From NCBI RefSeq assembly GCF_964204865.1, contig NC_135250.1:27838001-27902000 (forward strand): DNA of 64,000 nucleotides, written 5' to 3'. Made by a program: the position numbers and the translations under genes. The first letter of the stretch is position 1. Each line of letters opens with the position of its first letter. The stretch is from Styela clava (lineage: Eukaryota). Under the pieces are notes generated by a model that saw only the letters and a list, made by a program, of their open reading frames with translations, was not told the origin of the DNA and did not search any database. Below are positions 943 to 45,364 of this stretch, piece after piece.

Positions 943-3900
943 CTACATGTTATAAAGCACGTTGTCTACCATTTTTCTTTCCAACTCAGCTTTTTTTGAA
1001 GTTTTTGCGTTTTTGTTGACCACGCTATACATATCTTCAATGTTTTTGGAGTTGTTTGTTCCATGTGTTTCCTCGTTCTCTTGATGCACCTCGTTCTCTT
1101 GCTGCGTTTCGTCCTCTTGCTGAGGTTCGTGTTGCGGACAAATTTTCGAGCTTGTAGATACTAACTTGCGATAATATGCCAGTTTACGGAGAAATCTTAA
1201 ACACAGAAGCTAAAGATAACGACCAGAGAAAAAAATCCGAATGAGTAGTAGCCTACTGGAGATTTGACAGTCGGTTGCATGAAAATATAGGCAGAATCTT
1301 GTATAATAATCTATGCTGAAAAATTGGCATGAACTAAATCAAACTTCCTACAATTTATAAAAAATAATTTTTTTTTCAAGTGTTCACTAATATTTTATAA
1401 ATTTATATTCAAATTACCTCAATGTTAGGATGATTATAAGGAGTATTGCTAAACCAAGCAAGATTCCCAGAACGATTATCAAAGTTAGAATATTCTTCGT
1501 TTTACAATTTCCACCATAACCTTTGGTTGTTTCTAGAACTTCTGCGGTCGTAGACAGTGATATTGAGGTTAAGCCATTTTGTGTATCATTCCCCAAGTTA
1601 TCAGATTCTGTTGCAGTCGGTCCATTCTCTGAATATTTTGTGTGGTAGATTGCGTTAGATGTGGTGGAAACAGTATTCCTTGTTGTAGTTTGTTTAATCC
1701 CTACAAATAAATACAATTTTGTTTTATTGGTGATTTAATTTGTTGCATTACTTCAATCAAGTTTGTTGAGGCTACTCAAATAGGTACAGTTCAACTTTTA
1801 TTACTGATTTATTTTATTTAATAAAGTTTGCTTTTTTGAAACAAAAATATCAGTAATAGAAAATTTAAGATGTCAGATCTGACGGAGTCTTTTGTGCTTC
1901 TTGCGTATTGGAATAAAACCCAAATATTTTCAGTTTTTATTGGTGTGAACTCTTTTTAAAACAAGTATGTGCATATATCAAGAAATCGCCTCTCAATTAA
2001 AAATTATTATAATAAATTATGGTATCAAATAATTAAAAATTAATTCGTATTCAATAAACTAAAATTACATTCCCTAATGCATAGGTTCTCAAAGTGCTCC
2101 GTACGGAGCCCCAGGGCACCGCGAGAGAAACCCAGGGGCTCCGCGAGCTATTCGATTACTTTTCAAAATAATAACTAGTTTTGTAACTGTTCAAAGAAGC
2201 AATAACAGCTTTGATAAAATTTGACAACAATATAGCATCGAAATATGGCAAAGAAGAGGAATTAAAAAATGACATTATTTATAAGCTGGAGCGCAGCCAG
2301 GATTCTCAAGAGGTGGGGATTTGAATCGGAAATTTCCGCGCAACATTCTTTGCGATTATAAAAAACGGATAACGAGATTTCTGTTGCGTAAAATGTATGG
2401 CCGATGCGAGCATTTAAAGGGTCTTGTCGTAATAATTCAATTGTACTCATAGTTACTCAAGTTTCATTCGAGATTTCTATTAGGATTACTAAAATGAAAG
2501 AATACTATTCTAAAATAACATAAAATACGTGATAAACTGCCAACTATAAATAAATTGGAGTCGTATTTTCGCGACCCTGGAATTTGTCAAACTTGATTTG
2601 TTCTTTTGCACTCGAGATTATTATTAAGCAAGATATCGCCGTTTAAAAAATCACAAGATCTGGGCCAAATACGATTGAAATTTATTTTAATGCATGCGGC
2701 TCCGTCGGTAGTTTCACAATAAAAAAAAGGTAATTCGCGCACACAATTAACTGTGTTCCGATTTCGCAGTTACTATACGGTGAATAACCAAAGAAAACCT
2801 AACATTACACCAAATTTTGTGATTTACAATGCCTATGAAAGCATTTTTAATCTGACGTGAGTCTTCTAAAACCAAACTTATATAGTGTGATCTTTTATTT
2901 TAAGTTTTAATATTTTAGAATGCATTTTTTCAATCAAGAAATTTGAGTTGCGGATTTACCTCTTTATTATTAATTATTATTTTTAGCATTTCGTCGCCGA
3001 TGACTATATATGGCAACATGTTTTTTACATTGAACTCATAGTTCCCCACGAGAACAAAAAAGCAATTATCGTCGCCATTGTGAAACAATACATGTATATG
3101 CCGAAGAAAATTTTTGATTTAGGGAGAATAAACACCGGCGTAAAGATGTTTAAAAACATGCCATGCTGACGAAAACTATCGGTGATTGTAACAAAATGCA
3201 ATCGCGCACGTTATCAGCGCCTTTTAAGTCTTCCGAAAATGTCAAAAGGGAAAAGATTCGACCCCTAGTTTATTAATATGTTTGTCAAGTGTCAAATTTA
3301 CAGCTTTAGTAAGAGTATATATAATTTAAATTTTGATTTATTTATGACTTGCATTAACCCATTAAAAAAGGTTTAGCATTTAATTTAGGTCAAGTACTTT
3401 TAACTTGCTCAGGAATATTTATCGGAAAGCTACAATTTTAACATTTCTTTTGGGGCTCCGCGCATATTAGTCAACCTTTTCAGGGGCTCCGCGACACCGA
3501 AAGTTTGAGAACCCTTGCCCTAATGTATAAGAGATTATTGACTAGTTGAGTATGCCAATGTACTGTATATTTAAAATAATGTATATACTTTGCTATTCTA
3601 CAAAATCGGCACATTATAATATTGTTGCAGCTCAGCAAGCATACATATTACTTCTTTGGGTAATATATGTTTACACTTTTGTATCTATGATATTTTCTAC
3701 TTCAGATTACTGCAGAATATAGTACGAAGGATTTAAGTTTAAAGAGACTAATTAAAATGGCTCATACGTAATGTGTTGCTTTTACCTGTGTTGTTTAATA
3801 TCCGGTATATTGACATTATGTTGAATTCCTGTAATTCAGAAGAGTAACCATCTCCTGTCTTATATGTTAAATTAATTGAAAAAACATTATCTCCAATGAT

Positions 3901-5338
3901 ATGACGGTATATCCCATTACATCCGTCATTAATAGATTCATCAGATATAGTTTTGAGGGAAAAAAGGAAACAGTCGTTGAGTTTGGAATGACACAGTTCT
4001 GTATCCACTAATCCAGCTGAAAAATAGTGATTAGTTGCAGCCTTTGCATTTTATTACCTCCTATAATTCACCATATACGGCACTAATATGAGTATCACGT
4101 CCTAATTTCACATATTATATCCGATATAATGGTTACCTACGTAGATATCTCGGCAAAAACAGCACAACTGAGACATTTGTAAATCTTAATTAACGCAACA
4201 GGAAATCATAAAGACAACTATTAAACTACTAAAAACTAGATAATATGCAACGTATAACACATAAACATGTTTCGAGAGAAATAACCACATGGTGAAATGA
4301 AATTACTAGTACACAAATTAATCGAAACAAGCCTTGAAGGCAGATATAAAACTCTGTTTTTATAATAAATAGAAGTTGTTTAATTGTTACAAATAAACAC
4401 AAAAAATATATTCCTCTTGATTACCAGTAATTTTCAGAGATCCAATGCACTGACTGTTTTGATTGAGAATATTTTTAGTAATCTTAACTAACAAGACGCT
4501 GTTAGCAGATATGCAACTATCGGCTTTTAATTCCCAAATAGTGTGAATATCCCATGCTTTTCTGAAAAATACAATTTAAAAATGACTATTTAAACTTTAT
4601 TTTCATGTTCAAATACGGCTGGATGATCATAAAATTTCATCATTTTTAAAAGTTCATCAAAATAAAGTTTTTCTATAATTTTCATTATTCTGTTGATTAT
4701 TATTCATGTTAAATTTTTTTTATTGGATTGAATGCTTCATTTGTATCAATTTTTATCAAAATTGAATAGAATAATAGAGAAATGTTTACGTTACACTTGC
4801 TATTGATACAGGTGTAGAACATAAATCAACGTTAGTCTGACCCAGACTAATAGATCGGTGAAGTATTGCTGCAACTATCGGTGAACAAGAAAAAATATTA
4901 GTTGCGTTTAATATTTTTCTTTAGAACTGACAAGTCGTAAATCCGCTCTAAGGGTTTGAGTTTCAAATACGCGAAATATTATTAAAGATGACTACTTTAA
5001 GTATACATAAAGTTAATATGCAAGTGTACATGTCAACTATTTTTTCCCAGTACTAATTGGTTGAATCCTTAAAAAAATGAAGTTATAAAACGTTGAAGTC
5101 ACGAATTTCTAAAAGACTCAAAACCGGGATGGAATTCCAAAATTCATATCACTCACTCTAAAAAGTTTCGGAATTATTTAAATTTGAACGAAGTATTTTA
5201 ACTCCACAACTTCATTCCCTATACATAGTGAAGTAAACAACACCTATCCGCTTATATACATTATTGAGAGTCACTAGTAGAAATGATATGAACAAATTAC
5301 TCACATATAAGTAACAAAACCCGCGCAAAGAAATGCAT
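943..5338 (-). CDS. Gene A: class I type I membrane receptor-like protein, ~350 aa, apparently intact
   Basis: Exons (minus strand) 5338-5305, 4874-4790, 4561-4425, 4101-4072 (candidate micro-exon), 4016-3786, 1700-1418, 1195-943. All introns GT-AG with matching phases; total 1053 nt with no internal stop. Signal peptide MHFFARVLLLIFAAILHRSIS; TM ILTLIIVLGILLGLAILLIIILTL; tail ...AYYRKL...DMYSVVNK...MVDNVLYNM*. Confidence 0.85.
2080..3517. mobile_element. Non-autonomous hAT-type DNA transposon in an intron of gene A
   Basis: Imperfect TIRs CATAGGTTCTCAAA / TTTGAGAACCCTTG; perfect 8-bp TSD CCCTAATG at 2072-2079 and 3518-3525. The empty site is seen in paralog D (about 22798). Confidence 0.9.
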
Positions 5339-8011
5339 GTTTTCCAAATATGTCTGCTCCCTTCTATTGCAACTACACCGAGAATCTTTATTTGGTTATC
5401 TCAAAGTTTAAATTTGAAATCGTAAATGTCGGCCAAGGCAACAGCTGTTGCGTTGCATTCATTAGAGTGTATCTATACTCATTTATTACGTGTACTAAAG
5501 CGATGAATATTACTTGCCAAATCCAGATTAGTAATTGTAAAGTACGCTCTTTGTTAATTGGTAATGTGTGAGATCACTTCCTCGTGCACAGACGATCACC
5601 TGCAACAGTTCACTAAGGTTCGTTATTTGAAATCATGATCTGACTAATGTTATTCAATGATTGAGATCGAATCTTCCGAACAAAATTTTGAATTGGAAAT
5701 ATTGCTAATTTAGTTCCTGAAAACTTTGGATATTTTTAATTTACTTAGATTACTCTTCACCCATTATGTATTTTTAAAGTGAATTGGCCAAACTATGAAC
5801 AATGCTATGAAACAAGAGAGCGATGGTCAAATATATGATCACGAAATGGTACGTGTATGCAATTTGTCACAATTTGGCGGCTGAGCACATATTTTAACTT
5901 ACGCAAAAGCGAAACCACCACAAGGAGTGCAGTTATTAATTTTGATGACGTTATCGCACACAAAAAAGGAGTTTTATAGAGGCCACACATATTTTTCAGA
6001 AAGAGCAATGCCCAAATATGTGGACGCAAAGGTCGGGCATTGGTACTGGTACGGTAAGTCTTAAGCTTAGCATGACATTGACTAAAAGATCGTCGGACAA
6101 GAGTGGCGGAATAAAGTCTCATTAGAACAACCATCTGTGCGATGTTTGGGCATATTCACTTGGTATATTATCTTCATAAAACGAATATAGAAATCCAATC
6201 AATAACTGGAGTACCCATGCAAACTAAACTAAACTAAAATATCTGATCATTCAAAAACACCAAATTGCAATAAGCATCGTTACAGGTCACGCCTTAGCTA
6301 AACAGTGATCACCAGCTGTGTTAAGTTTTGTGATATCAAAAAACCCCACAGGGCTCAAAGATATTTGATAATTTATAAAAGTAATCCTTTTCTGGAAACT
6401 ACTACCACCTTCATGTCATCAAGATTTAAAATCGATTGGTCCATTACTTTTGTTCACAACAATTTTAGGTGTGAATATTTCTTACAATTTATTTTCTGTC
6501 TTGTTGCTGCATTTTGATTTGGGTGTATATCGGCCGACGCATTTTTTTGATGAGACTCGCTAATGTTTTTGTGTTATTTTAAAGTTTTGGATACTTAATT
6601 TCCCATTGTATTTAATATTCAAGCAAAAGTATTTTCGTATTAAATTATTTTTCAATCCTCTACGATTTTACATGTCCAACTGCAGATTTTACCATTCCAT
6701 AAAAAAAATAACGTTGGTCAACTTGTGTTTGCTTAATTACAATATAACCATTGGGTCAACGGTCTAGGACCAATTGCCGAGATAAAAATCGTTAGCAAGC
6801 GATCTTTCTCTGGTGTGCTCGTGTTTCAACTTTGGAAGCTTAATCAATCAAGCCAACAAAATTATAATTGTATATCTAAGAACATACCTACAGAAAAATT
6901 TAGGTAATTGTTGATAACGATTGTTGCCATGAACTTAAACTAATATGTTTCAACATTTTTGTTTTGATTTATACAATTATAACTTGTCTCATAATTTTAG
7001 TTAAATTCTAACAGAAAGAATAGTATATTTAAGCATAATTTTACAAATAACATGTTAATAAATGTTCATGGGTAAATATTCATCACTGAATAGCCGTTTT
7101 AATTGTACTGTGGTATCTAAAGATAAAAAAATATCTTATTTATAACCCTAAATTTTGTCAATATGTTTTGAGCTAGAAGCACCTCAATTGCCTCGTCAAA
7201 GTGATCAAAAACCGAAACCATGATAACAAAATACTTTAACGTAAATTGAGAAGTCACGCAAGAATAATAAACGATCTATTACATCCTGTTTGTTGCACTC
7301 TTGTATTTCTTATCAACAAATTCTGTTGATGCAATTTATTCCTCAATAAATTATGTTCATTCTTTCTAATAATTGTTTGTTCTAAAGTTGCTCTTTTAGT
7401 TTCTATAAATTTTAATTCAGATCCGGGAAAGAAAGGACGATGTGCCGCTCTATTATTTCAGATTGAATATAAGGATCGCTTTGCAACTAGAATTTCTTTC
7501 CACTTTTGTAAATGAGCCAGCATTCGATCATGCAAACCCACAATATTCCAGATCGCCAATACATTTTATTAATATTTATTATTATGCAGTGGGATAATCG
7601 TTGCAGAAAAGCATTTATTATGCGAATAAAAATAATCCTAATCTAACGTTATGGTTCGAGATAACAATTATAATTACAATTTATAATTTATTTTTTTAAT
7701 ATCTATTTCATATAAATGAATTTATTTACTACAACAAAAAAAATTTAAAATAAATTCAGAATGTATATAGCAATTTATTTAAAAAATTGTTTGAGCCTGA
7801 ACTCGTTTTTTCTACATGTATATCAAATATATAATGATAACCCACTATACTTTCCCAAAAGTCCTCTATGTCTGCTCTAGACATTTAAGTTGGCTCATTT
7901 AAATTTCATGTTAAATGAGAACAAATATTAAATCAAAAGGCAAAATAAAATACACGAAAAAGTACATAAAACATCAAAATAGTTTATAAATTTGAAAAAA
8001 TTGAAAAAAAA

Positions 8012-8247
8012 GGTTACTCCCGTAGTATGTGCAATAAGATGGCGGACACCGGAACGTAGTATGTGCATCAAGTTAGGGTTAGGCCCTAATTGCAGGTACA
8101 AATACTACGGGAGTCACTTGGCTAGTCCACGAACTCATAATAGAACTAAATGAAGGAAATTGGAATAAATAATGGTCTAACCCTAACCTGGTACACATAC
8201 TATGTTCAGGTGTCCGCCATCTTGTTGCACATACTACCAGAGACCCC
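8012..8247. mobile_element. Fold-back MITE with long TIRs and internal GTTAGGGTTAGG motif
   Basis: CCCGTAGTATGTGCAATAAGATGGCGGACACC.GAAC.TAGTATGTG is mirrored at the other end. Lies downstream of class II genes; copies at 32823, 50918 and 56890. Confidence 0.8.
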
Positions 8248-8451
8248 AAAAATGAGTTTTTACTCAGTTTGCTAATGTTATATGTTAAATATGTGTATAA
8301 TCATTTTGTATGTCTATATATACTCTATTATAGCAAGATCTGATCACTTAATCTAGAGTGACTATACTCAATCATGTATAGTCTGGAGCAGTCAATGACA
8401 CGAAGAGAAACTGAAATTATTGTTCAACAAATAAACAGGTATAAGGTGAAG

Positions 8452-11400
8452 TCAATATTCAATATCATGATAGGGGTGAAAATTTGTCGGCTCGTATTCA
8501 GATGATCCATCAGGTTGTTGCAATGAATCGCTCGTCAAGTATTTAATCTGGTGTCTTGGATCGGGATGATAAGTCATTGCAGAATGCTCATGACAAATAG
8601 GCAATTCGTATTCAGAAGTTTCGGTAGAGCTGGTTGTCTTTGATCGTTTAATAGTGTTGTTTTCGTAGATTCCGTGTTCACATTCAAACTGAGCTTTTGA
8701 TATATTTTTCATACTTGGTTTCTCATTATTCCGGATAGCAGTTGTATTCCTGTTGTTTTTCATCCTAAAATAATGAAAAAAGTATAGATTTCCAAGCTTC
8801 GGTCGTATCTCAATGTCATGCAGGTATAAATATTTCGGCGCCTAACCGTTGTAGATACAACAGTGATGCGAACATTTCGACAATGCTAACAAAAGCGAGT
8901 TCGACAATTAATGAATTTAATGTTACTTGGAATGATTTTGACCTACTACTACCGATCCCTGATGTCGTACTAACGACTCAACCACTTTTGAATCAGTTAA
9001 AAATAATACCTCTCTAACACAGTTTATATTATTCAAAATAGAAAATCCATTCCAAATCCAAAACTGCTATTTGGATATGTGATACGAATACCCATATGGA
9101 CATCTGAAGATTCCGAGAGTTGTTCCGGCAGATTCCGATAGTTTCCGTATTTGAAAACAATAGAAAATAAAATGGACGCTAGCTCTTTTAAATCAATGCC
9201 CTTGTCTGTGCAATGTTTATTAAACATCCAATAGTGATTTGAATCTTACTTGATAGTGATGACAATAATGATGATCACTGCAATAACGAGAAGAATGCCA
9301 AGTACAATAGTAGAGATGAAAAAGATTTTCTTTGTTTCTCTGCCAAGGTCGTCGCTACTTGTAGTTGGTTTTGTTATTTTCTCAACTCCAGTTTGTTCAA
9401 CCGACGCAGTTGTTGCTTCATTTGTGGGCAGGCGCGTGTTGCTTCCAGTAGTTGCAATTTGAACATCTTTATGAGCTTATTGAAAGTTTACATAATTCAA
9501 TACATCTAAATAATACCAATTATCATAACAAGCACAATTACAAGATTGACAGCATTGAAGTTTAAGAAATTAAAACCACACTAATTTTATTTTGTTCTAA
9601 TTTTTTTTTTTTAATATGTCGTCGATTTTGGTAAAGCCCAAAAATGTGTCAAGTTATTTTGTTTATAGGATATAAAAGCAATACCTATGTCGTGCTAACG
9701 AATAACCGCTCATAAGGACATAAGTATTCAGTTCGTTCTAAATTACAATAAATTCCTTGTTCCATTAGCGTATTTGTTTGCCCTTGTTTGCTGCATGTTT
9801 TCACATAGATTAAGGGAATGCGAAAATCTTGGAAATGATCATAGAAACCATCCTCTGTCTTATAGGTAATATTTATTCTAAATGCAAAGTCTTCAATGAT
9901 GATATGAGGAAATATTCTAGCACATCCGTCAGTAACAGAACCATTAGATACATTTTTGAAGAAAAAGGAAACAGTCGTTTGATTGGGAATTACGAAGTTC
10001 TGTTCTAATTTGATAAAAAATTTGCTATTTGCTATGCGGAGCATTTCATATAAATAGATTAATAAACATTGAATACAATACGAAGAACTTAAGTTGAAAA
10101 GACTAATTATATTCGCTCATACTTTGCTGCTTTCACCTGTGTTGTTTATGATCCGGTACATCAAATGGATTTTGTATTCTTGAATTTCATGAGAGTAACC
10201 ATTTCCTGTCTTATATGTCAAACTAATTGGAAAAATATTATCTTCAATGATATGCTGGTATATCCCATTACATCCGTCAGTAATAGATTTATCAGATACA
10301 GTTTTTGGGGCAAAAAGAAAACAGTCGCTGAGTTTGGAAGCACATAATTCTGTATCAACCAATCCAGCTGAAAAATAGTGATGAATTGGCGCCCTTACAT
10401 TATAGTACATGATAATACCTCCTATAATTTACCATATACGTCACTAATATGAGTACCAGGTCCTACTGTCACATATTATATCCGATATATTGGTTACCTA
10501 CTTAGAGATCTCGGCAAAAAAACGCATATCCCTAGTAACTGCGTTTTTTTTAAGTAAAGTGATACATTCTATTACTCTTTATATGGTGAATGGTGGTTAC
10601 ATTATCGCATGTAATTTTGAGGTAAATTATTTATTTTTGCGAAGCATAACTGACACCAACACATCTGTAATTCCTAATTACCGCAACAGCAGACAACTAT
10701 TCATAGGGATAACTATTATAAACTAGATAAGTAGTGCATTTATGCAACGTATAACACATAAACATGTTTTGAGAGAAATACCCCCTTGATGAAATAAAAT
10801 TACCAGGGCACAAATTAATTGAAACAAGCCTTAAAGGCGGATACAAAACTATATTTTTATAACAAATAAAAGTTGTTTAATTGTTACGGATAAACAAAAA
10901 AAAAATGTATTCACTTTGATTACCAGTAATTTTTAGAGATCCAATGCACTGACTGTTTTGATTGAGATTATTTTCAATAATTTTAACTAACATGACGCTG
11001 TTAACAGATATGCAACTATCGGCTTCTAATTCCCAAATATTGTGAATATCCCCTGCTCTTCTGAAAAATACAATTTAAACTTAATTTTCATGTTCATATA
11101 CGGCTGGATGATCATGAAATTTCATTTCATCATTTTTAAAAAGTTTATTAAAATAAATTTTTTTTATATTTTACATCATTCTGTTGATTGTTATTGAAGT
11201 TAAAAATTTTTTATTGAATTGGATGCTTTATTTGTATCAATTTTTATTATAATTTAACCAAAAAAAATTAAGAAATGTTTACTTTACGTTTGCTCCCACT
11301 TCAGGTGTTGTACATAAATCATAGTTAATCTGGTTCTGACCAATAGATTGGTGAAGTATTGCTGCCAATATAGATGAACAAAAAAGAATATTAGTTTTGT

Positions 11401-11835
11401 TGAATATTTTCCGCAGAACCGACAAGTCATAAATCCGTTCTAAAGGTTTGAGTTTCAAATACGCAACATTTTATTCAAGATGACTTCGTTAGGTATACGT
11501 ACAGTTATATGGCAGTGCAAATGTTTACTATCTCACTCAGTACTAATTAGTTATATCCGTGTCAAAGAAAAAATAAATTTATAAAACGCTGAAGTCACGA
11601 ATTTCTAAAAGACTCAAACTCTCGACGGAATCCTATAATTCATATCACTCATTTTAAAAAGATTGGGAAATATTCAAATTTGAATGAGGCATTTTAACTC
11701 AAAAAATTCTTTCCCTGTAAGTATTGAAGTGAACAACATCTATCCGTTTATATACATTACTGAGAGTCACTTATAAAAAATGATATGAACAAATTACTCA
11801 CATATAAGTAACAATACCCGCGCAAAGAAATGCAT
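8452..11835 (-). CDS. Gene B: class II membrane receptor-like protein, open if the duplicated exon is skipped and a cryptic acceptor is used
   Basis: Exons 11835-11802; 11367/11361-11283 (canonical acceptor AG>AT at 11368, in-frame CAG 6 nt downstream); 11060-10924; 10462-10433; 10367-10137; [10031-9783 duplicated exon, donor GT>GG]; 9475-9250 (stalk plus TM IFFISTIVLGILLVIAVIIIIVITI); 8764-8452 (tail with IYENN, EYELP, EYEPT, PYHDI). Confidence 0.65.
9783..10031 (-). pseudogene. Degenerate tandem duplicate of the 231-nt ectodomain exon (exon A')
   Basis: Translation homologous to exon A (TDGC..I..HI...INITYKTEDGFY). Internal indels sum to -3 and the donor is lost. Homologs at 34504-35614, about 52591-52835 and about 58593-58838. 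Confidence 0.75.
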
Positions 11836-11897: not shown

Positions 11898-14695
11898 CCA
11901 AGGTATAAAGTTTAAAAATGTAAAAATTTGTCAGGCCAACAGTTGTTATGCATGCATTCATCAGAGTATTTATGTATCTACTCTTTTATTACTTGTACTG
12001 AAGCGATGAATATTACTTGCCAAATGTAGATACGTAATTGTAAAGTACGCTCTTTGTTAATTGGTAATGTGTGATATCATTTCCTTGTGCACAAACGCTT
12101 ACCTGCAACAGTTTACTAAGGTTGTTTATTTGTAATCATGATCTGACTAATGTAATTCAATGATTGAGATTGAATCTTCCGAACAAAATTTTGAATTGGA
12201 AATATTGCTAATTTAGTTCGTGAACACTTTGGATATTTTTAATTTACTTAGATTACTCTTCACCCATTATGTATTTTGAAAGTGAATTGGCCAAATTATG
12301 AACAATGCTATGAAACAAGAGAGCGATGGTCAAATATATGAACACGAAATGATACGGGCATGCAATTTTTCACAATTTGGCACCGTATTGCAGCTGAGCA
12401 CAAATTTTAACTTACGCAAAGGCGAAACCACCACAAGGAGTGCAATTTTTAATTTTGTGATGACGTCATCGCACACAATACACGAATCTCTTAGAGGCCA
12501 CACATATTTTTGAGAAAGAGCAATGTCCAAATATGTGGACGCAAAGGTCGGGCATTGGTACTGGTACGGAAAGTCTAAAGCCTATAATAAAAAGGCCTTT
12601 AATTAAATTATTTATTGGCAATGAAGGATCAAATGACTAAACAAGAGAGCAATGCTGAAATATAGGGACACGAACGTCAAAACCCACACCCACAATTTCT
12701 CAAAACTATATTTTGAACGCTGGAACTAGAGACGGCTGTCATAAATACTTCTAGGTGTAGTTTAGTGGGTGGGCGTGTTGTAATAATTTTTGCATTTGCC
12801 ATTCCTGAGACCCACCTGATTGCGTCATCACAGCGATACGTCACAACTACGTCATATCATGTAATGAACCTTGCCAAAGCCAGATACCTTCCAAATACCT
12901 ACCTAAACTATTGCCTCACAAAAAAGCAAACAACGACATGGTGGAGTATAGTCACTGATTACAAATAAGAATTCACTTTGCTTCTATAGTCTTTTATCTT
13001 TATTCACGATTATTCCGCTTTTAAAATATGATTACACGAGAACTCGCGCATAAAATGTTTAATAATGAGGACAGGCATTCTTATAAAATTACAATCAAAT
13101 CAAAATCTAAAATAAACCCTTACACTCTCTATATCTCTGATACATTCATACCTAAAATATTACATGTTATCTTTCACTTTTGTTCATTGGCATTTCACGA
13201 AGGTATATTACGTAGTGATTTATTATCAAAGCTTACTAGAATTTACAAGTGAACGTAAATGTTATCAATTTATGGTAATTTACTTCAGACTAATCGTTCA
13301 GAACAAAACAAAGTTTTATATATTTTTTAAATAAGTATGTTTTAATTTCTCAAAATCTTTATATGTCTTCAGATCAAATTAAACTAAAAAGTTAGAAAAG
13401 AAATAATTTGAATGAATAAAGTGAAATGACGTACAGTTGGGACGAGAATGTGTATATGTATAACATGCAAATTGTCTCTGATGTATGGCTTACAAGAGAA
13501 TAGTAAAGCATGATAGCATGCTTGTATATTTATCAGTCTGTAATGTATTTTTTTTCAATTCGTCCAGAGTAGAGGTCAAATCAAGTTTTTCCAACCAGTA
13601 AAAGACAAAAATCATGCTAAAAATATATATATATAAAAAAATGATATTTAATCACTTGGGGATTAAAGGCGCGGGGAACCCAAACTGATTATCGAGCAGC
13701 TAAACCCAAAAATAAAATCAAAAGTAAACGATGCTCGCACTTGCGCTATGTCACAATTGATCATTGACCTTGGAAAGATATATTGATGCAAAACAACTAA
13801 ATGTTATACAGTTATGTAAATATTCAATGTCTTAATAATGGTTTAAATTTGTCGGTTCATATTCAGATGATCCATCAGGTTGTTGCAATGAATTGCTCAT
13901 CAATTATCCCACTTGACGCATTGGATCGGGATGTGTAGTCGTCTCAGAATGATCGTCTGAAATAGGTATTTCGTATCCAGAGGTCGCAGCTTGTATATTT
14001 GGTTGTATTTGTTTATTGACGATATTGTTCTCATAAATGTTTCGATCATTTTGAAACTGAGCTCTTGGAAAACTTGCGTTATGCACATTTGTTTTTTCAG
14101 GGTTGTCGGAAGTTGAAGCAGTTTTGTGCAGGCTCGTCCGACTCGTGGCCCGCGGGCCACATGTGGCCAATCGAAGGTTTCCGAGTGGCCCACGCGGTTC
14201 AATTCGAATCACAATGCCTCTCACAAATCTGGGCCATTATTGAAACCTCTAATAAAAAGATTATTCCTGGTCATTCAATCGCTCGAGAAGTACCACCCAG
14301 CTATCGAAATATTTTATTTAGGTCCCTTTGTGAGCGTTATTGGTGGAGAGAGATGCCTTGTATTTTAATCTGTTTTTCCTTTTTTTTTCCTGTGAAGCTA
14401 GAAGAGGCAATTTTTATGATCCTGATATTTGACAGTAGTTATTTGTACGAGCAAGTTTTTGCGCATGAACCATGTCAAATCCCCCGCGGGATCACTAATT
14501 TTTGATAGTGAAATGAAAAATTCGGTATGCATGGCTGCATCGTCCATCGCACCGAATATTGACAAACTTACTGGACAAAAGCGGTGTCATACTTGACATT
14601 AAAATATCTATTTGTGGTAAAAACTTTTGACGTAACTGTATCTTTGTATTTCCATTGTTTTTATAATTTTGGTGTGATGGTTTTGTTTGTTTTTT

Positions 14696-15620
14696 CATTA
14701 ATCAGAAGCAATGTAGTAAATACTAGAACATAACAACCATTTCAAGTGAAATGTGGCAGAAAGTCATGCAGCACTTGCCAACATTCCGAAGAAAGAAAAA
14801 TTGCAACAAGCAGACACAAGGACGTAGAAATGAAAATTAATCAGAAAATTACTTGCAACTCGGAGAATGTCATCTACTTAATAAGCTGCAAAAAGTGTGG
14901 CATGCAATACATAGGAGAAACGGGAAGACATCTAAAATATAGAATAACTGAACATATCAGAAGTATTAAAACCCAAAACAAAGATTTAGTTGTAGGTGCA
15001 CATTTCACCCAACCGGATCATTCACTTAAAGACTTCAGTGTCATTGGCATTGAAAAACTATTCCATGACCACATGTATAGAAAAAACAAAGAATCTTATC
15101 TCATTCATCGCTTCGGGACACATGAACCACAAGGGATGAATATTAAGGAAGTTTAAAGCAATTACTAATCTTGCATTCATTGTTTAACTCATCCTTTGTC
15201 TTTAATGTTGTTCTCAGGGTTGGATCATGCATGGCCATATATGTAGTCAACAGACAAACAATCAATATATTATAATTGACTCAAAGACGCTTTTCTGGTC
15301 AGCATCATCCAATGCTGAAAAACACAAAACACCATTGTTTAATTTGAATCTCAATTGTTCAATATAAAACAAAGAGAGAGAGATCTCATCAATGTCATCC
15401 CATTTCAGCCACCAGCTGTTATTTAATCAAGAATTCACTGATTTAATTGATTATTCAACATGCCTAACTCCCATTCTCTTATAATGATTGTTTAAATATG
15501 TATGTAACCGCTTTTCTTGTTGTAGTTGAACTATGTATGTCTGAAGAAGTCTGACCTTGGTCAGACGAAACGTTACACAAATATATTTGAGTTAGTGTGC
15601 AGCAAAACTCTTGAATCACT
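14696..15620 (+). mobile_element. 5'-truncated Penelope-like retroelement (GIY-YIG endonuclease plus 3' region)
   Basis: ORF 14746-15156: CGRKSCSTC knuckle, ITCNSENVIYLISCKKCGMQYIGETGRHLKYRITEH, VGAHF...H, R..KE..LI..F.T..P.GMN. These are the conserved motifs of the PLE endonuclease (Neptune-type knuckle). Confidence 0.92.
15532..15583 (+). ncRNA. Minimal type I hammerhead ribozyme of the Penelope-like element
   Basis: TGT-CTGAAGA-A-[GTCTGACC TT GGTCAGAC]-GAAAC-GTT-ACA: CUGANGA and GAAA core, 8-bp stem II, palindromic ACGT stem III, GUU cleavage triplet, TGT/ACA stem I. Confidence 0.8.
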
Positions 15621-20975: not shown

Positions 20976-21944
20976 TCATTTTTTATTAGAATATTTTCGA
21001 TATAATATAATTTGGATGGAATATTGTACGGGCAATGCTTACAATATGTTTTTTCCCTATTTAACAACAAGGGTGGCATGCAATATATTGGAGAGTTACA
21101 ACAGCACATATTCTTCAATAAAATATGATAATCACAAAAGAGCTTCACCCACAAACAGTTCAGATTCGAACATTTGTTAACCAGCCATTATATGATTAAT
21201 CAGTCACTTGAGCAAATATGATGAATCATGCTGTTCATTCACTTTGTGATTATAACATATTTCTGCGTCACAGTTTGCGTTAATAAGTGATTGTACAAGA
21301 ATTACTCTGAAAATTGGAATCATTCCCAGAATAAGTTTCCTTAAAGGTTCAAACCGATCCTTGAACAAAAGAAAACTCATTTATGCGTCACTTACATGCA
21401 AATATATTATACAAATATAAGTACAAATAATAAGCAAATATAAGTACAAATTAAAGTCTAACTATGTATAAAAAATATTTAGGACAAAAATAGTGTTACA
21501 TTCAAAAGTTTTTGAAAATTTAATTTGGAATGATTTTGTGAAATATAAAAAACGCGTATACATCGGTTGGGCTAAATATTAAGATGCACGCTTCTCGTTT
21601 TCCGTAGTTGTATTGTTAAATTAAAGTGTTTTAGAGATAGGATGCATGCTATTGAATGATAGAATACAGTATATATAGGTCACTAATATAACACGCGAAA
21701 AGAAAACCTAGATATATGTACAATAGTGTTCAAAGAAAGAAAAAGCAATTTGATAAAAGAAAACAGTGTAACAGATCAAAGTCTTCAGCAATCTGTAAAT
21801 TGATGAAATTTGCTGTTACGCTAGGAACACTATATATTATAAGCACATTTTGTGTTGTCCGAAGTAATAATCAAATCTGAGGGTTTTGAGACAAAATGTA
21901 TCTACATATTATAAAGCACGCTGTCAATCATTTCTCTTTCCGAC

Positions 21945-24725
21945 TCAGCGTTTTTTTGAAGTTTTTTCGTTTTTGTTTACCACGCTATACATATCTTCAA
22001 TGTTTTCGGAGTTGTTTGATTCCTGGGCCTCGTCGTTCTCTTGCTGCACTTCGTTTTCTTGCCGCGGTTCAGATTCCAGAGAGGTTGTTGACAATAATTG
22101 ACGATAGTTTGCCAGTTTGCGATAAAATCTGAAACACATATGATAGTGATAACGAAGAGCTTAGAAAAATAAGAACGAGTTGTACTACTGTTTGGACTTC
22201 AATATTTTGCTTGAAAGCGGTTCAAAAGTGTGAACTGAACTATACTTCCTACCATTTATAAAAGGGTCATTTACCAAGTTACTACAATTTCCTTAAAAGA
22301 ATTCAGCGCTACATGTAAAAACTTGAGACTGGAACCATGCAGAATTGGTAAAAAATCAAGAATTGCAGATTACCTCAATGTTAGGGTGATTATGAGAGGT
22401 ACTGCTGAACCAAGCAAGACTGCTAGAACAATTATCAAAATTGAATTATCCTTTGTATTACACTTTCCATCATAACCGTTGGAATCCCTCATTGTTGCCG
22501 AATTCGGAACTGAGGTTATATCACTCTGTGTATTGTTCATCAAATAACCAGAATGAGTTTCCGTCGGTTCATTCTCTGAATATGTTGTGTGATAGTTAGA
22601 TGTGGTGGGAACGCTATTACTTTCTGTAGGTTGTTGAAGTTCTACAAATAGGTACAGTTCACTTATTATTGGCGGGAACCCTTTTTAAATCCAAGCGTAT
22701 ATATTCAAACTCGCCCCTCAATTAAAGATTTCTATAAGAAATTATGGTATCAAATATTTGAAAAGTGCGTTTGTTTCGTTAAAACTAAAATTACATTCCC
22801 TAATGTTTGAGAGATTATTGACTAGTTGAGTATGCCAATGTACTACATATTTACAATAATGTATATACTGTACTATTCTACAGAATTAGCATATTATAAT
22901 ATCGTTGCAGCTCAGCAAGCATACAAATTTCTTCGAGTAATATATGATTACACTTTTTGCAGTTATATTATTTTCTACTTCAGATTACTGCTGAAGACAA
23001 TACGAAGAACTTAAGTTGAAATAGAATAATTCAATTCGCTTATACTTAATTTGTTGCTTTTACCTGTGTTGTTTAATATCCGGTATATTGACAGTATGTT
23101 GAATTCTTGTAATTCAGAAGAGTAACCATCTCCTGTCTTATATGTTAAATTAATTAAAAAAACATTATCTCCAATGATATGACGGTATATTTTATTACAA
23201 CCGTCAGTAACAGATTCATCAGATACAGTTTTTGAGGCGAAAAGGAAACAGTCGTTGAGTTTGGAATCACACAGTTCTGTATCCACTAATCCAGCTGAAA
23301 CATGGTGATTAGTTGGTGCCTTTACATGATAATACCTCCTATAATTTATCATATACGACACTAATGTGAGTATCGGGTCCTGATTTTACATATTATATCC
23401 GATATATTGGTTACCTACGTGGAGATCTCGACAAAAAAACTGCAAATACCAAATATATATTTTTTTAAACAAACAAAGTGGTACATTCTATCAGTGTTTA
23501 TATGGTGAATGGCGGGAACATTATCGCTTGTAATTTTGAGAGAAATTGTTTATTGTTGGGAAGTTTGAAATACATATCTGAGAATAACAAAATTCCCAAT
23601 TCCCAATTAACGCAACAGAAGATGATAAAGACAACTATTAAAAACTAGATGAGTAGTGCATTTATGCAACGTATATAACACATAAACATGTTTCGAGGGA
23701 AATAATGTGTGAATAACGTGATGAAATAAAATGACTAAGACACAAGATAATCGAAACAAGCTTTGGAGGCGGATACAAAACTATATTTTTATAATAACTA
23801 AAAGTTGTGTGATTGTTTCAAATAAACACGAAAAATGTATTCATATTGATTACCAGTAATTTTCAGAGATCCAATGCACTGACTGTTTTGAGTGAGATTA
23901 GTTTTAATAATTTTAACTAACAAGACGCTGTTAACATATGTGCAGCGATCGCTTTTCATTTCCCAAATACTGTGAATGTCCCCTGTTCTTCTGAAAAATA
24001 CAATTTAAAAATGACTATTTATTCTTTATTTTTATGTTCATATACGGCTGCATGATCATGGAATTTCATTTCATCATTTTTAAAAGTTTATCAAAATAAA
24101 ATTTTTTACTCTATTTCACATCATTCTGTTGATTATTATTCATGTTAAAATGATTTTTTATTGGATTGGATGCTTTAATTGTATCAATTTTTATCAAAAC
24201 TTAATAAAAAAAAAGAGAAATATTTTACCTTACACTTGCTCTTGATACAGGTGTAGAACATAAATCAACGTTAAACTGACTCAGACCGATAGATTGGTGA
24301 AGTATTGCTGCCACTATAGGTGAACAAGAAAAGATTATTTGCGTTCAATATTTTTCTTCAGAACTGACGAGTCATGAATCCGCTCTAAGGGTTTGAGTTT
24401 CAAACACACGATATAGTATTGAAGTTGACTTCGTTAGGTATACGTAGTTATATCCTTGTTTAAAAAAAGTTATAAAACGTTGAAGTGCCAAATTTTTGAA
24501 AGACTGAAACCCTGAATGGATTTCTAGAATTCATATCACTCACTCTAAAAGTTTCGAAATCATTAAAATTTGAATAAGTCATTTTAGCTCAACAAATTCA
24601 TTTCCTATACGTAGTGAAGTAAACAACACCTATCCACTTATATACATTATTGAGAGTCACTAATGAAAAATGATACGAAGTAATTACTCACCTATAATTA
24701 ACAATACCCGTGCGAAGAGATGCAT
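21945..24725 (-). CDS. Gene D: class I receptor with shortened tail
   Basis: Exons 24725-24692, 24313-24229, 23990-23854, 23294-23064, 22641-22374, 22128-21945; micro-exon donor is mutated. A +1 A in a homopolymer ends the tail at ...YSVVNKNEKTSKKR*; the ancestral stop is at 21902. Confidence 0.75.
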
Positions 24726-25589: not shown

Positions 25590-28500
25590 CAGGTTCCGAG
25601 AATTGCTGAAAATTTGTCGGTTCGTATTCAGATGATCCATCAGGTTGTTGCAATTGCTCATCAAGTATCCCAATTGATTTGAATGAGTAGCCGCCTCAGA
25701 ATGATCGTCTGAAATAGATATTTCGTATCCACAGGTCGCGGCTAGTATAGCAGATTGTATTTGTTTATTAATGATTTTGTTTTCGTAGATGCTTGGATTA
25801 TTTTGGAACATTAGGAAAAATTTTGCGTTATGCACATTTGGTTTTTCATTGCTCTTGGGAGTAGAAGCAGTCTTGCGGTTTCACGGTCTAAATCAAAATT
25901 CATATATTTTCTAGTATGTTTACATATAGGTTGAATGCCGAATCAAATTTGGGAAGTATGTCTTGCGGGTTTACCAAATCCAGGATTGTTAACGTTGGGT
26001 TAAGAATAGTGCACATCTGCTTATAGCAGGTCGGTGTAATTTTACGACGTTTCGAATCTCTATGCGTAAACAACTTAACAATTTGATGTCGAAATCCTAA
26101 GCAGGCAAACTCCGCCCACTAAGTCAGCAAATTATATCGTTCTGCTAACACCGATTGTGCTCCATACCCCCGACTAAAGCGGCAATCGTGCGTCACATGC
26201 TTAGTAATTTTAACAAGACTTCTTAAAGTAACCCAGATGCGTCATTATGTGTATTTATCAAATTTGTATCCGTATTAAAATGCTCATCTCAGGCAATGTC
26301 CATACAATTTCATACATATGAGACAAATCACTGTTTCAATATCTGACTATGACCGGTGATGAGATTACGAGGCCGTGGTTAGTCATATAGTCAAAAGCTG
26401 ACTTCGTGACTTCTTATCTTTGAGATATAAATATGGAATAACTTGTCTCTTTATTATCGTATTCATGCCCCCAATGAATCCAAGCCAAATAGGCTTTTTG
26501 AATAGTAAACTGCTGATATTTGAATATTTTGCCAGCACTAATCAGTAACCAGTAAATAATTATTAACTTGAATAATTTTATGTTACCGAAATAATCTTGC
26601 GTTTTAGCTTTTAGGTAATATGTAAATTCGTATGAAATCAGCTTGGCTGGTATTAAAGTTTGGTACAAAAGTTTCCGGCCCGTATTGAATTTCGTTATGT
26701 GGAAGTGGCCCGTGAGACGAAAAAGGTTGGGCAGGCCTGTTGTGAGGAGTTGCTAGAAGGATATTTTCTGAAATTTTGTTGAGCACTGTGGTTGGGCCCG
26801 AATTTGTTATGCTTTGAATATGAGACCTCCGTGTCATCTGAGCATTGAATTTTGGTTTATATAGAATATTATTGTTGATGCAAAAAATATTACCATACAC
26901 GTACTAAGGCAACTAAGCCATATTGCTAAATACTGTAATGGCAAAACAATAATGATGAGGCTGTATTTGATGTTTGTCAAATTCGGCTTGGCTGATAGCG
27001 ATATTTAGGCAACCGTAATAAAAACGTTATGAAAGTAGATGAATCATTGATGATAATTTGCCCGATGGTTTGCTGGCTGGTTTTAAAATCAAGCCTTGGA
27101 TTTATCTGGTTGCCAAGTCAATTCAGAAAGCTTGTAACATCTTGTTAGTGTGGTTGGCGACTTTTCTTCCTGTCTCTACATGGAATAAAGAAAATGGCCT
27201 TCTCACTTGATCTCTATAAAATTTGCGTTTGAATGTCGCAGTAATTTGCACGATATTTTTCTGGCTGGTTTTACTGACTGGACATGAGTGTTTTTCATTA
27301 TATTCCTTCTAGGAATTGTAATGATGTAAATTCTCTTCTTATTTGATATCTATGCAATTTACACTTGAATAACGAATGTTGCAGTAATGAATGTATTTCC
27401 ATATTAAAACGTTACACGGAGAAGAGGCTAAGAATACACACAAGCAAAAGAAACATGCACAAGCATTGTGCAAGTCAACGAAATGTTCATATCTATACAT
27501 GAAACACAGTTCTTTTGGAGTTGCTTCAGCCCCTTATTCGAAAGAAAAATCTGCCAAGTCTTCGTCTGCAGAATCAGATGTGAATCCTGTGTATTTAAAC
27601 GTCAATCATGAGATACATGTTCTACATTGTCTGTCTTTAGCTAGCTCCGGCTAGATGACTATATAGATGTATATATTTATTCACGATATTAACATTTCTA
27701 AGTTTATTTTTCTATGCGTTTTCGTTTTGCATGAGTATTTTCATGAGCACAAGATCTATCGAGATGTGCACTCGTTACTTCGAGTTTTTCAACTCCAGAT
27801 TACCATGTTCCACTGGCTCAATCTCCTATCTAAAATGATTTATTTTTGCGGATTAGTCGTCTGAAAGCCTTGTTTCAATTTGATTTAAAAGTTAGGCATC
27901 TTATTAAATAAATCTGTACCGACCTGGACTCCGACATCCAGGATTTCAAAATGATGCCTCAATGAAGCATAGATAAATGAGCTCACGTAGTATGTGTACC
28001 AAGATGGCACACAACCCGATAAACCTAACCTGGTACACATATTATGTTCAGGATGTGCGCCATTTTGGTACACATACTACGGGAGCACCAAGTAAATAAT
28101 GCATTAACACACGTATAAAACCAGCTAGCAACTGTAGATTCGGTTTTCCAATTTCTGGTCAATAGGAAAATTGGAATTTCCTTGAGCGCTGTCAATTGAC
28201 AAATTTAGCGGATTGTTCTTACTCTTTACATTCCCTTTCCTTGGATGATAATAGGTTTTCTTCACATCCCATTCCACTGAACGGTAATAGGTTGTCATCA
28301 CACTCCATTCCATTGGACTGTAATAGGTTGTTCTGAAAAATAAAATCGCTTTGAAATACAGATATCGCTCATTGTAGAACACATTATGAAGTCTGTGGTG
28401 AGCAGTGCCGGATTTACCCTTAGCCTAGGGGCCCGTCCTCTAAATTGTAAAGGCTTCATAATAAAGCCTGTTTAAAATATTACAAAACTGATATTTGTTT

Positions 28501-31346: not shown

Positions 31347-32812
31347 CTACATATTGTAAAGCACGTTGTTTACCATTTCTTTCTCCGACTCAGCATTTTT
31401 TCATTAAGTTTTTGTGTTTTTGTTGACGACACCATACATAGCTTCAATGTTTTCGGGGTTGTTTGCTTCTTGTGCCTCTTCTTTCTTTTGCTGGACTTCG
31501 TTCTCTTGCTTAATTTCGTTCTCTTGTTGAATTTCGTTCTCTTGCTGCACTTCGTTATCTTGCTGCGCTGCCATCTCTTGCTGTGGTTCAGATTCAAGAG
31601 ACATTTTCGAGGTTGTAGACAATAATTGACGATAGAGTGTCAGTTTGCAATAAAATCTGAAACACATATGGCAGAGATACCAAGAGCTTAAAAAAATAAG
31701 AACAAGTTGTACTACTGTTTAGACTATCGTTGATATCAATCTTTTGCTTGAAATTGATTTAAGAGTCTTTTATACTCACACACTTGAAATTTGTCTTGTA
31801 TGATTGATATGAACTGAGCTATACTTCCTACAATTTATAAATGGTTATTCGCCAAGTTATTACAATTTTTCAAAAGAAGTTAGCGCTATTTGTAAAGACT
31901 TGAGGCTAGAACCATACAGAATTAAAAAAAAATCGAATGACGGCACTGTAATTTTTTATGCAAATTACCTCAATGTTAGGATGATTATAATGAGTACTCC
32001 TAAACAAAGCAAGACTGCCAGAAAAATAATCAAAGTATATATCTTTTGTTTTACAATATCCATCATGACCGTTGAGTGTTTCTAAATCTTCTTTATCCGT
32101 AGCCAGTGGAATTAAGGTTATGTCATTTTGTGTATTGTTCAACAAATAACCAGGTTGAGTAGCAGTCGATCCATTCTCTGAATTTGTTGTGTGATAGTTA
32201 GATGTGGTGGTTACACTATTCCTTGCTGTAGTTTAGGTACAGTTCAGTTTTTATTGGTGGTATCTCTTTTTAAATTCAAGTATGTGCATATATCAAAAAT
32301 CGCCTCTCAATTAAAGATTTTTTTACGAAATTAGGATATCAAATATTTGAAAATTTTCATTTAAAAAGCGCGTTTGTCTCGTTTTGAATAAACTAAAATC
32401 ACATTACCTGATGTTTAAGAAATTATTGACTAGTTGAGTATGCCAATGTACTGTTTATTCAAAATAATGTATATACTGTGCTATTCTAGAGAATTGGCCA
32501 TTATAATAAAACTCGGCTAGCATACAAATTACTTATTTAAGTAATATATGTTTACACTTTTTGCAGCTATAGTATTTCTACTTCAGAATACTGCAGAATA
32601 TAATACGAAGAAATTAAGTTGAAAGAGAATAATTCAATTCGGTTATTTCTGATTTGTTGCTTTTACCTGTGTTGTTTATTATCCCGTACATTAACTTGAT
32701 GTTGAATATTTGTAATTCAGAAGAATAACCAACCCCTGTCTTGTATGTCAAATTAATAGGAAAACCTTTATCTCCAATGATATGATGGTATATCCCATTA
32801 CATCCGCCAGTA
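31347..32812 (-). pseudogene. Gene E: 5'-truncated class I pseudogene
   Basis: Tail exon 31656-31347 has a premature TAA at 31404. Stalk/TM exon (ending 31969) has a 2-nt frameshift and a deleted acceptor. Only the 3' part of exon A (32812-32667) remains before a deletion junction. Confidence 0.85.
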
Positions 32813-32822
32813 CATCCGCGTT

Positions 32823-33024
32823 CACCGGAACGTAGTATGTTGATCAGGTTAGGGTTAGGCCATAATTTCAGATACAAATACTACGGGTGTCACTTGGCTA
32901 GTCTCAGAACTCATAATAACACTAAAATAGGGAAAATTGGAATAAAATTATGACTTAACCCTAACCTGGTACACATACTATGTTCAGGTGTCCGCCATAT
33001 TGTTGCACATACTACAGGAGACCA
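32823..33024. mobile_element. Left-truncated copy of the 8012 MITE
   Basis: Begins at CACCGGAACGTAGTATG at the deletion junction; right TIR is intact. Confidence 0.8.
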
Positions 33025-33227
33025 AAAAAACGAATCGTAACTCAGGTTGCTAAGTTATCTGTTAAATATATGTATAATCATTTTGTATGTCTATATATAC
33101 TCTATTATAGCAAGATTTGATCACTTAATCAGGAATGACTATACTCAATCCTGTCTAGTCACAAGCAGTCAATGGTATGAAAAAGAACTGAAATAATGTT
33201 CAACAAATAAACAGGTATAAGGTAAAG

Positions 33228-44835: not shown

Positions 44836-45364
44836 ATATATATTAGAAGCACGTTTTGTGTTGTCCGAAGTAATAATCAAATCTGAGTGTTTCGGGATAA
44901 AATAAATGCAAATACGTATTGTGAAGCACGTTGTCTAGCATTTCTTTTTCCGACTCAGCGTTTTTTTAAATTTTTGCGTTTTTGTTGACGACGCTATACA
45001 TAGCTTCAAGATTTTCGTGGTACGTAAAAAGAAAGCCTAGATATATGTACGAAAGAATTCAAAGAAAGGAAAAACAATTGGATTAAAAAAAACAACAGAT
45101 ATATATTAGAAGCACGTTTTGTGTTGTCCGAAGTAATAATCAAATCTGAGTGTTTCGGGATAAAATGAATGCAAATACGTATTGTGAAGCACGTTGTCTA
45201 GCATTTCTTTTTCCGACTCAGCGTTTTTTTAAATTTTTGCGTTTTTGTTGACGACGCTATACATAGCTTCAAGATTTTCGTGGTACGTAAAAAGAAAGCC
45301 TAGATATATGTACGAAAGAATTCAAAGAAAGGAAAAACAATTGGATGAAAAAAAACAACAGATC
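44836..45364. repeat. 263-bp tandem duplication containing a class I tail-end remnant
   Basis: GGTACGTAAAAAGAAAG anchor recurs 263 bp apart (45021 and 45284). Minus strand reads ENLEAMYSVVNKNAKI*KNAESEKEMLDNVLH. Confidence 0.85.

Follow-up and report, generated by a model that had tools for sequence, protein, structure and literature searches.

Our analysis of a 64,000-nucleotide (nt) stretch of the Styela clava genome, hereafter the window (contig NC_135250.1, here C1, positions 27,838,001-27,902,000), placed it within a tandem array of receptor genes that combine one pool of ectodomains with two long, tyrosine-bearing cytoplasmic tails, here called class I and class II. We tentatively favor, at slightly less than an even chance, the reading that class I would inhibit via Csk (plus Dok) and class II would scaffold Crk, Nck, and Grb2, the two forming a paired-receptor system that signals through its own tail tyrosines; phosphorylation, partners, polarity, and an immune role are what we infer here. 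The locus is a birth-and-death array of single-pass receptors. Exon 4 served to locate 25 loci within 214 kb around the window, every one of them on the minus strand; five additional loci form a second cluster at C1 27.58-27.63 Mb. Exon mapping called 11 of the 25 loci intact and 14 not, the intact count being a lower bound because the mapper failed on diverged genes (II_w112235 and four of the five second-cluster genes), some of which have NCBI models. The window itself holds eight loci, four of each class.

The nearest database protein was an uncharacterized S. clava model, LOC144425764 (P0001), and its mapping gave a six-exon gene encoding a signal peptide (exons 1-2), a six-cysteine domain (exons 2-4), a Ser/Thr stalk with the transmembrane (TM) segment (exon 5), and the tail (exon 6), that is, a single-pass receptor with one ectodomain of about 140 residues and an uncharged TM. 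The class I gene at 5338-943 is intact, and the class II gene at 11835-8452 is too, provided that splicing uses a cryptic acceptor 6 nt downstream. Their features, in window coordinates, are as follows.

5305-5338, minus strand: class I exon 1, start of the signal peptide (ATG, GT donor)
4790-4874, minus strand: class I exon 2, signal peptide and ectodomain start (AG/GT)
4425-4561, minus strand: class I exon 3, first half of the predicted CUB-fold ectodomain
3786-4016, minus strand: class I exon 4, second half of the predicted CUB-fold ectodomain
1418-1700, minus strand: class I exon 5, Ser/Thr-rich stalk and uncharged TM
943-1195, minus strand: class I exon 6, 83-residue tail (this splice was seen in a paralog or allele contig)
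1162-1173, minus strand: class I juxtamembrane YRKL (YxxL), C1 clusters only
1018-1029, minus strand: class I core motif YSVV, predicted Csk/SHP2/Src-type SH2 site
952-969, minus strand: class I terminal VDNVLY (hydrophobic-x-N-x-x-Y), predicted PTB site
11802-11835, minus strand: class II exon 1
11283-11361, minus strand: class II exon 2; usual acceptor lost (TAT), in-frame CAG 6 nt downstream presumably used
10924-11060, minus strand: class II exon 3, ectodomain
10137-10367, minus strand: class II exon 4, ectodomain
9760-10050, minus strand: dead copy of exon 4 within an intron, a feature of class II genes (13 copies; ratio of nonsynonymous to synonymous substitution rates, dN/dS, 1.03)
9250-9475, minus strand: class II exon 5, encoding the stalk and an uncharged TM; does not align with class I exon 5
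8452-8764, minus strand: class II exon 6, 103-residue tail with 7 Tyr
8659-8667, minus strand: class II YEN (YxN), predicted Grb2-type site, not in all diverged copies
8599-8610, minus strand: class II YELP (YxxP), predicted Crk/Nck/RasGAP-type site
8455-8541, minus strand: class II C-terminal block (YLT, YEPT, YHDI, terminal Tyr), the best conserved part of the tail

A sequence-only reading of this DNA had proposed that the two tails carry contrasting phosphotyrosine codes, neither of them a canonical motif of the immunoreceptor tyrosine-based inhibitory (ITIM) or activation (ITAM) type. Both parts of this proposal held. The class I tail exon (1195-943) encodes YYRKL, DMYSVV, and a terminal MVDNVLYNM before the stop, the class II tail exon (8764-8452) encodes IYEN, EYELP, KYLT (as QIKYLT), and YEPT-NFHP-YHDI-EY before the stop, and both join the TM exon in frame, in phase 2. 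The ITIM pattern (S/I/V/L)xYxx(I/V/L) had 0 matches in the window class I tail. An ITAM comprises two YxxL/I with tyrosines 10 to 12 apart; the class II pair YEPT-x4-YHDI, rightly described as too close, is spaced by 8, and its first member, YEPT, has no L/I. The hemITAM context [E/D][E/D][E/D]xYxxL, as defined in PMC12582321, was absent from class I and class II tails. In the array, no live gene carried the switch motif (ITSM) TxYxx(V/I): TxYRQL ends in L and is confined to three copies with other lesions. The TLYRQL of gene E, put forward as ITSM-like, did not survive scrutiny, as gene E is a pseudogene that lacks exons 1-3 (398 bp separate the stop of the upstream gene from its exon-4 remnant) and has a frameshifted TM exon with no acceptor; TLYRQL and the variant MYGVV were found only there.

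The class I core, described as an ITIM-like (D/N/A)MY(S/G)VV, is indeed in frame and conserved as DMYSVV, its G variant being restricted to dead gene E; judged from its sequence, MYSVV probably fits a Csk/SHP2/Src-type site better than an ITIM. An ITIM requires (I/L/V) at position -2, and Grb2 and Gads read pYxN (PMC2194117). A single substitution separates YSVV from YSSV, the sequence in Cbp/PAG1 that the Csk SH2 domain binds, and animals throughout have one Csk gene (PMC3492796). The YSxV motif is conserved, Csk is present in the Styela genome, and YSVV is a predicted site for it. The available text of PMC10016382 offered no Csk consensus. Among 13 class I tails on C1, a juxtamembrane YxxL/I was present in 12, an in-frame MY[SG]V[VI] in 10, and a terminal NVLY in six. 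The proposed terminal NxxY thus stood in part: it is in frame in two of the four class I tails within the window and lost in the rest. The juxtamembrane YxxL, also proposed, is present as YYRKL and was confined to the C1 clusters. Because this YR[KQ]L lies 8 residues into the tail exon among basic neighbors, and because the predicted helix 232-272 of the P0001 model continues the TM and includes it, it is likely a sorting signal or a structural element (a TM-extending helix).

Several class I tails depart from this plan. In two class I genes that are open apart from this, the P0001 locus and the gene at 21902-24725, a shared frameshift in the tail spares YSVV and removes NxxY; a spliced contig resembles this subtype, and a YSVV-only receptor may therefore be live. 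Conversely, a class I copy in L019 (C1:27,935,277-27,935,579, minus strand) has two compensating frameshifts, having lost YSVV and kept the terminal NVLY in a gene that is otherwise open. A Gln/Glu-rich repeat of 6 residues, located at 1030-1135 and also in other class I tails, differs in copy number and so places YSVV nearer to or farther from the membrane (tail length 83 to 101 residues).

Distant class I-type relatives were located on C3, C6, and C16, with more members on C17 and further along C1; six measured models had 29 to 32% ectodomain identity. In 24 distant-paralog tails, most of them found by a profile built from motif-bearing tails and the profile-missed ones read by eye and included, YSV[VI] occurred in 15, Y[SAC]x[VI] in 19, and a terminal [VI]xNx[LI]Y in 10; the Botryllus core-2 pattern [A/D]VYxxV was matched by nine. 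Left out of the tally were an inverted, nearly identical copy in L045 and any gene whose tail was not located. Two of the 24 matched the canonical ITIM and one the true ITSM TxYxxV; at the YSVV site itself there was one of each. The juxtamembrane Y[RS][QK][LI] was not seen among these 24. Between two pairs of NCBI models of the same C1 loci, YSVV and NVLY were unchanged, and YSVV persists in tails where NxxY is lost. On the strength of the distant-paralog and C1 counts, YSVV appears to be the old core of the family tail and NxLY an old but optional element. Three further distant members on C1 (28.02-28.05 Mb; L030:8668-8811, L033:4335-4484, and L032:3517-3729) have candidate tails of more types under predicted splicing, two of them bearing YS[ND]I, YEQP, and YQN[VL] and the third an acidic YEDL/YEIY stretch.

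Short motifs arise readily, and we asked how often 20,000 shuffles of single tails would yield them. For class II, the frequencies were 0.48 for YxN, 0.39 for YxxP, and 0.52 for YxxI/L, jointly 0.089 and not beyond chance; for class I, they were 0.063 for the YSxV type and 0.37 for NxxY, jointly 0.009. The case therefore rests on conservation rather than on pattern matching. Tail dN/dS was 0.43 for class I (codon bootstrap 0.26-0.74; three intact genes, with I_w99033 omitted for a frameshifted stretch) and 0.48 for class II (0.26-0.89; seven intact genes), against neutral controls, computed by a near-identical method, of 1.03 for the 13 dead intronic exon-4 copies and 0.90 for nine orphan class II tails. 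Purifying selection acts on both tails. In four diverged class II tails, tyrosine was kept at 22 of 28 aligned positions compared with 193 of 351 for other residues (Fisher p=0.017), and four of the six misses concern one tyrosine present in only two close copies; in dead class II tails, tyrosine was kept at 38 of 65 positions versus 602 of 873 over all sites. Six shared class II tyrosines are thus preferentially kept in diverged copies. The proposed YELP held up, YxxP being found in 7/7 young and 4/4 diverged copies. YEN is in frame and present in 7/7 intact young copies, yet it is the least stable class II motif, with YxN in 2/4 diverged copies and a stop at its tyrosine in one gene. Y[LM][TM] and YEPT occurred in 4/4 diverged copies, and two conserved tyrosines went beyond those already pointed out, namely [KEGQ]Y[LM][TM] (QIKYLT) and the C-terminal tyrosine. 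Loss of the tyrosines from related genes, which the sequence-only reading had named as the outcome that would count against it, was not what paralogs and second models of the same loci revealed.

These data bear on the notion that the array consists of decaying recent duplicates and that the motifs, above all those of class II, are chance patterns carried along by duplication. The 14 loci not called intact and the class II shuffles are in its favor, as is the fact that no class II splice joint was listed in contigs of probable RNA runs, which were dominated by repeats and cannot show absence. We nevertheless regard it as very improbable: tail dN/dS lies below 1 where neutral controls lie near 1, tyrosines are retained in diverged copies and not in dead ones, class I motifs are present in paralogs on four other contigs, and NCBI models exist for both classes, those with a class II tail being P0004 and P0014. 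At the P0004 locus (C1:27,918,899-27,922,203), the model skips the part of exon 4 that contains an in-frame stop and may mask a broken gene. A search of sequencing runs listed no RNA run with the class II gene, a blank that carries no weight as evidence. For class I, a contig of run X9 joined the end of exon 5 exactly to exon 6 (mapped on the neighboring class I/class II pair), another X9 contig joined exon 4 to class I exon 5, and an X5 contig from a different study bridged the same intron; X9 and X5 are only guessed to be RNA runs, and their contigs differ from the reference and hence derive from paralogs or alleles.

The ectodomain pool is what ties the two classes together. AlphaFold, run on 11 aligned sequences, modeled residues 21-160 with confidence as a beta-sandwich (predicted local distance difference test mostly 80-94). 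A structural search returned as top matches the CUB domains of KREMEN1 (Z 11.0; root-mean-square deviation [rmsd] 2.4, 104 aligned), TSG-6 (10.2), neuropilin-2 (10.0), and cubilin (9.8), with 26 chains at Z≥8, mostly CUB. Foldseek placed a bacterial beta-sandwich near the top at an rmsd of about 6, and this had a Z of 7.2 in the VIA search, under the CUB set. In the listed Pfam families, neither 11 proteins nor nine exon translations matched CUB at E≤1. Searching PDB by sequence, with the class I tail and with the family profile, yielded no meaningful match and none to any PDB CUB protein. The structural matches together with the lack of a Pfam match led us to call the ectodomain a predicted divergent CUB fold.

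In a tree of exons 3-4 from 29 genes, poorly resolved and silent on the order of events, assigning the classes takes 9 changes, where shuffled labels average 8.8, and monophyly of class I was rejected (approximately unbiased [AU] test, p=5.3e-8, omitting two unclassified genes). In the second cluster, one class I ectodomain and one class II ectodomain are sisters with support of 100/99. Ectodomain identity was 75% within and 73% between classes, and the stalk, TM, and tail exons of the two classes are unalignable (best stalk/tail blastp E=3.8). The interleaved tree and the unalignable downstream exons therefore show that ectodomains have been exchanged or homogenized between two downstream cassettes. 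The genes thus combine clustering, highly similar ectodomains, and two tail types, and the common, interleaved ectodomain pool supports a paired-receptor layout. Ectodomain dN/dS was 0.61 over 11 genes and 0.97 for class I (confidence interval 0.58-1.73), and ectodomain-wide positive selection was rejected, as no value above 1 was detected. Homologs labeled as another species were not found in searches of limited sensitivity, which do not prove lineage restriction; an unlabeled Logan protein, P0006, with 35% identity over the ectodomain and a very short tail, is the only match that may come from another species.

The TM segments agreed with the earlier claim that they are uncharged. Among 17 genes open to the tail, the hydrophobic core carried no charged residue in 17/17; in two of them, the 23-residue scan window reached the cytoplasmic stop-transfer Arg. 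A single Cys lies within the TM in 2/17 genes and none follows it, and the juxtamembrane Cys pair of palmitoylated PAG was not seen in any of the 17. In vertebrate paired receptors, activating members combine a short tail with a charged residue in the TM that serves DAP12/FcR-gamma; no member of that kind was found here, where both tails are long. With no charged TM residue, signaling would therefore come from the tails.

Tail tyrosines may instead serve transport, and we consider it improbable that the motifs are mainly trafficking codes, with YxxL/YxxV/YxxI for AP adaptors, NxxY for PTB/FERM sorting proteins, and the two classes as endocytic or scavenger receptors taking different routes. 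YxxPhi is a sorting signal, and the basic context of class I YR[KQ]L is poor for tyrosine kinases and apt for such a signal; NPxY/NxxY often mediates internalization (PMC8007030). YxxP, YEN, and YEPT, however, do not fit YxxPhi, the neighbors of YSVV and of the class II tyrosines are acidic, as is typical of kinase substrates, and neither the preferential retention of the six class II tyrosines nor the persistence of YSVV where NxxY is lost is in line with sorting as the main function.

Under the favored inhibitory/scaffolding reading, a ligand would cluster the receptors and a Src-family kinase would phosphorylate their tails. In class I, the old family-wide tail, pYSVV would recruit Csk or SHP2 and VxNxLpY a Dok/IRS-type PTB protein, and Src and Ras signaling would be damped, as by PAG and CD200R. 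CD200R inhibits without an ITIM via NxxY-Dok2-RasGAP, its Pro not being conserved (PMC8007030), and Dok-4/5 bind RET Y1062 (PMC2150770). Class II, found only in the C1 clusters, would be a built-in LAT/SLP-76-like scaffold that docks Crk/Nck at pYxxP, Grb2 at pYEN where present, and more SH2 proteins at the C-terminal block. YxxP readers include Crk, Nck, and RasGAP. Ascidians are reported to lack LAT and SLP-76 (PMC12582321). In the genome, six of 40 fetched SH2 stretches were compared with PDB, and SH2 exons were found with best matches to Csk, CrkL, RasGAP, SHP2, and Nck; a Grb2 SH2 exon was not confirmed, since the listed matches of its candidate, one of the six, were all SHP2 and gave it no clear assignment. 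IRS-type PTB had seven matches in the genome.

A number of points weigh against this reading. Individual motifs are near chance in one tail, and the class II set is so jointly; the dN/dS values come from few, related copies preselected as intact; YxN is kept in just two of four diverged class II tails; the motif-built profile inflates the 15/24 and 10/24 fractions; only 11 of 25 loci were called intact, and the window's class II gene (11835-8452) needs a cryptic acceptor; dN/dS of the ectodomain does not exceed 1; and RasGAP, too, can be recruited by YxxP. In addition, CDCP1 Y734 (YAVI) is the main Src-family site of that receptor and binds SHP2 (PMC4395315), the Botryllus core-2 [A/D]VYxxV (dual core-2 FcoR1) sits on the partner of an activating receptor (PMC12582321), and NxxY also serves trafficking and activating receptors (PMC8007030). 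By analogy with the CDCP1 and FcoR core-2 precedents, the polarity of classes I and II could be reversed.

The same precedents, along with the predicted CUB fold, speak for both classes being positive Src-dependent docking receptors like CDCP1 or DCBLD1/2, acting in adhesion, migration, or development. Class I pYSVV would then bind a Src-family SH2 or SHP2 and NxLY would bind Shc/FRS2, and the tails would differ in pathway rather than sign, or have the sign opposite to inhibitory I and activating II. DCBLD YxxP binds Crk. CDCP1 and DCBLD are conserved few-copy genes, which counts against this idea, as does a pattern that is that of paired recognition receptors, namely 25 loci within 214 kb, over half of them not called intact, with ectodomains mixed across tails; nor did the ectodomain match any PDB CUB protein in sequence. 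We hold docking receptors of this kind to be rather unlikely. Going beyond the favored inhibitory/scaffolding reading, the array might be a styelid-invented CUB-fold paired system with a non-ITIM/non-ITAM code, in which a Csk-plus-Dok brake would face an intrinsic scaffold standing in for LAT/SLP-76, cassettes would exchange ectodomains, and core-2 would be a Csk docking site; this extended version is doubtful.

The remaining loci and remnants of the window are these.

21902-24725, minus strand: class I gene, open through YSVV; tail frameshift removes NxxY
31347-32830, minus strand: gene E, dead class I remnant with TLYRQL and MYGVV (tail 31656-31347)
33228-37417, minus strand: class II gene that has lost its exon-4 donor and has a stop where the YEN tyrosine would be
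45502-48525, minus strand: intact class I gene (NYRQL, NMYSVV, NVLY)
51314-54588, minus strand: broken class II gene with frameshifts and a stop in the tail
57317-60653, minus strand: intact class II gene
13820-14138, minus strand: orphan class II-type tail remnant with stops

Two of the four class II tails within the window reach their end. Orphan class II-type tails (13820-14138, 25600-25887, 38283-38563, and 63854-64139, minus strand) lie 5 to 8 kb downstream of most class I genes; we rejected them as alternative last exons for class I because the window copies carry stops or frameshifts. Likewise rejected were the open frame 9685-10116 as a second ectodomain, it being a frameshifted exon-4 copy evolving neutrally, and the stops at the end of exon 3 as lesions, their positions lying past the main donor. 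The dead exon-4 duplicate in intron 4 of class II genes suggests a former larger ectodomain or an old exon duplication. At 44918-45321 (minus strand), downstream of the intact gene at 48525, the 3′ part of a class I tail stands in two tandem copies. Intergenic blocks of 3 to 5 kb (15.8-21 kb, 24.4-30 kb, and 38.6-43 kb) repeat between array units at 90 to 93% identity. A very high-copy short element with inverted ends occupies about 8015-8235 and 32830-33050, one copy lying at the gene E deletion point, and an open reading frame at 14734-15156 (plus strand) with a GIY-YIG domain (Pfam E 1.2e-5) is probably a mobile-element fragment.

No published description of the Styela family was found in the literature searched, which lacks most subscription journals. 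Paired activating and inhibitory receptors arose repeatedly on Ig and lectin folds; if the favored inhibitory/scaffolding reading is true, a CUB-based set with both signs in long tails, and with no ITIM, ITAM, or adaptor, would mean that the paired layout is independent of those motifs. The array would also offer candidate recognition receptors in a solitary ascidian, and its tails would give a direct test, as Csk versus Src/SHP2 binding, for the unexplained core-2 motif of Botryllus FcoR. The Botryllus schlosseri FcoR family (PMC12582321) likewise comprises ascidian multigene clusters of type I receptors with varied tyrosine tails, and its core-2 pattern is matched exactly by the nine distant-paralog tails and loosely by class I DMYSVV, in a comparison made without the FcoR supplements that list its tails, which may bear on this likeness. 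The Styela family differs in having one predicted CUB fold and a single YSVV followed by NxLY, and its single 140-residue domain, with CUB top structural matches, is not the Ig-like plus Sushi ectodomain of FF/FcoR. A Fester-like partner was not seen, though none was searched for.

With vertebrate paired receptors (KIR, Ly49, LILR, and the CD200R family) the array shares clustered genes, near-identical ectodomains, two tail types, and many broken copies; it differs in that both classes have long tyrosine tails and uncharged TMs on a fold that is neither Ig nor C-type lectin. Cbp/PAG1 (PMC3492796) resembles class I in YSSV versus YSVV, in its acidic disordered tail, and in the availability of Csk, but it is a palmitoylated raft adaptor, whereas the Styela proteins lack the Cys pair and have a folded ectodomain. 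The CD200R1 tail (PMC8007030) likewise lacks an ITIM and has an NxxY in which Pro is dispensable, with more tyrosines and an acidic stretch ahead of it; the CD200R1 ectodomain is Ig, the spacing is different, and in Styela the NxxY is optional. CDCP1 is a CUB-domain single-pass receptor with a docking tyrosine, YAVI (PMC4395315). CDCP1 and DCBLD have larger multidomain ectodomains, no tandem expansion, and no detected sequence similarity to the Styela family. DCBLD1/2 are CUB-domain single-pass receptors with docking YxxP. Collectively, the layout is that of a paired-receptor cluster, but one that falls outside the ITIM, ITSM, ITAM, and hemITAM definitions, the adaptor-coupled paired receptors, and the FF/FcoR family; what appears distinctive of it is the predicted CUB fold, the two long nonhomologous tails on one ectodomain pool, and the conserved module of putative Csk-type plus PTB-type sites.

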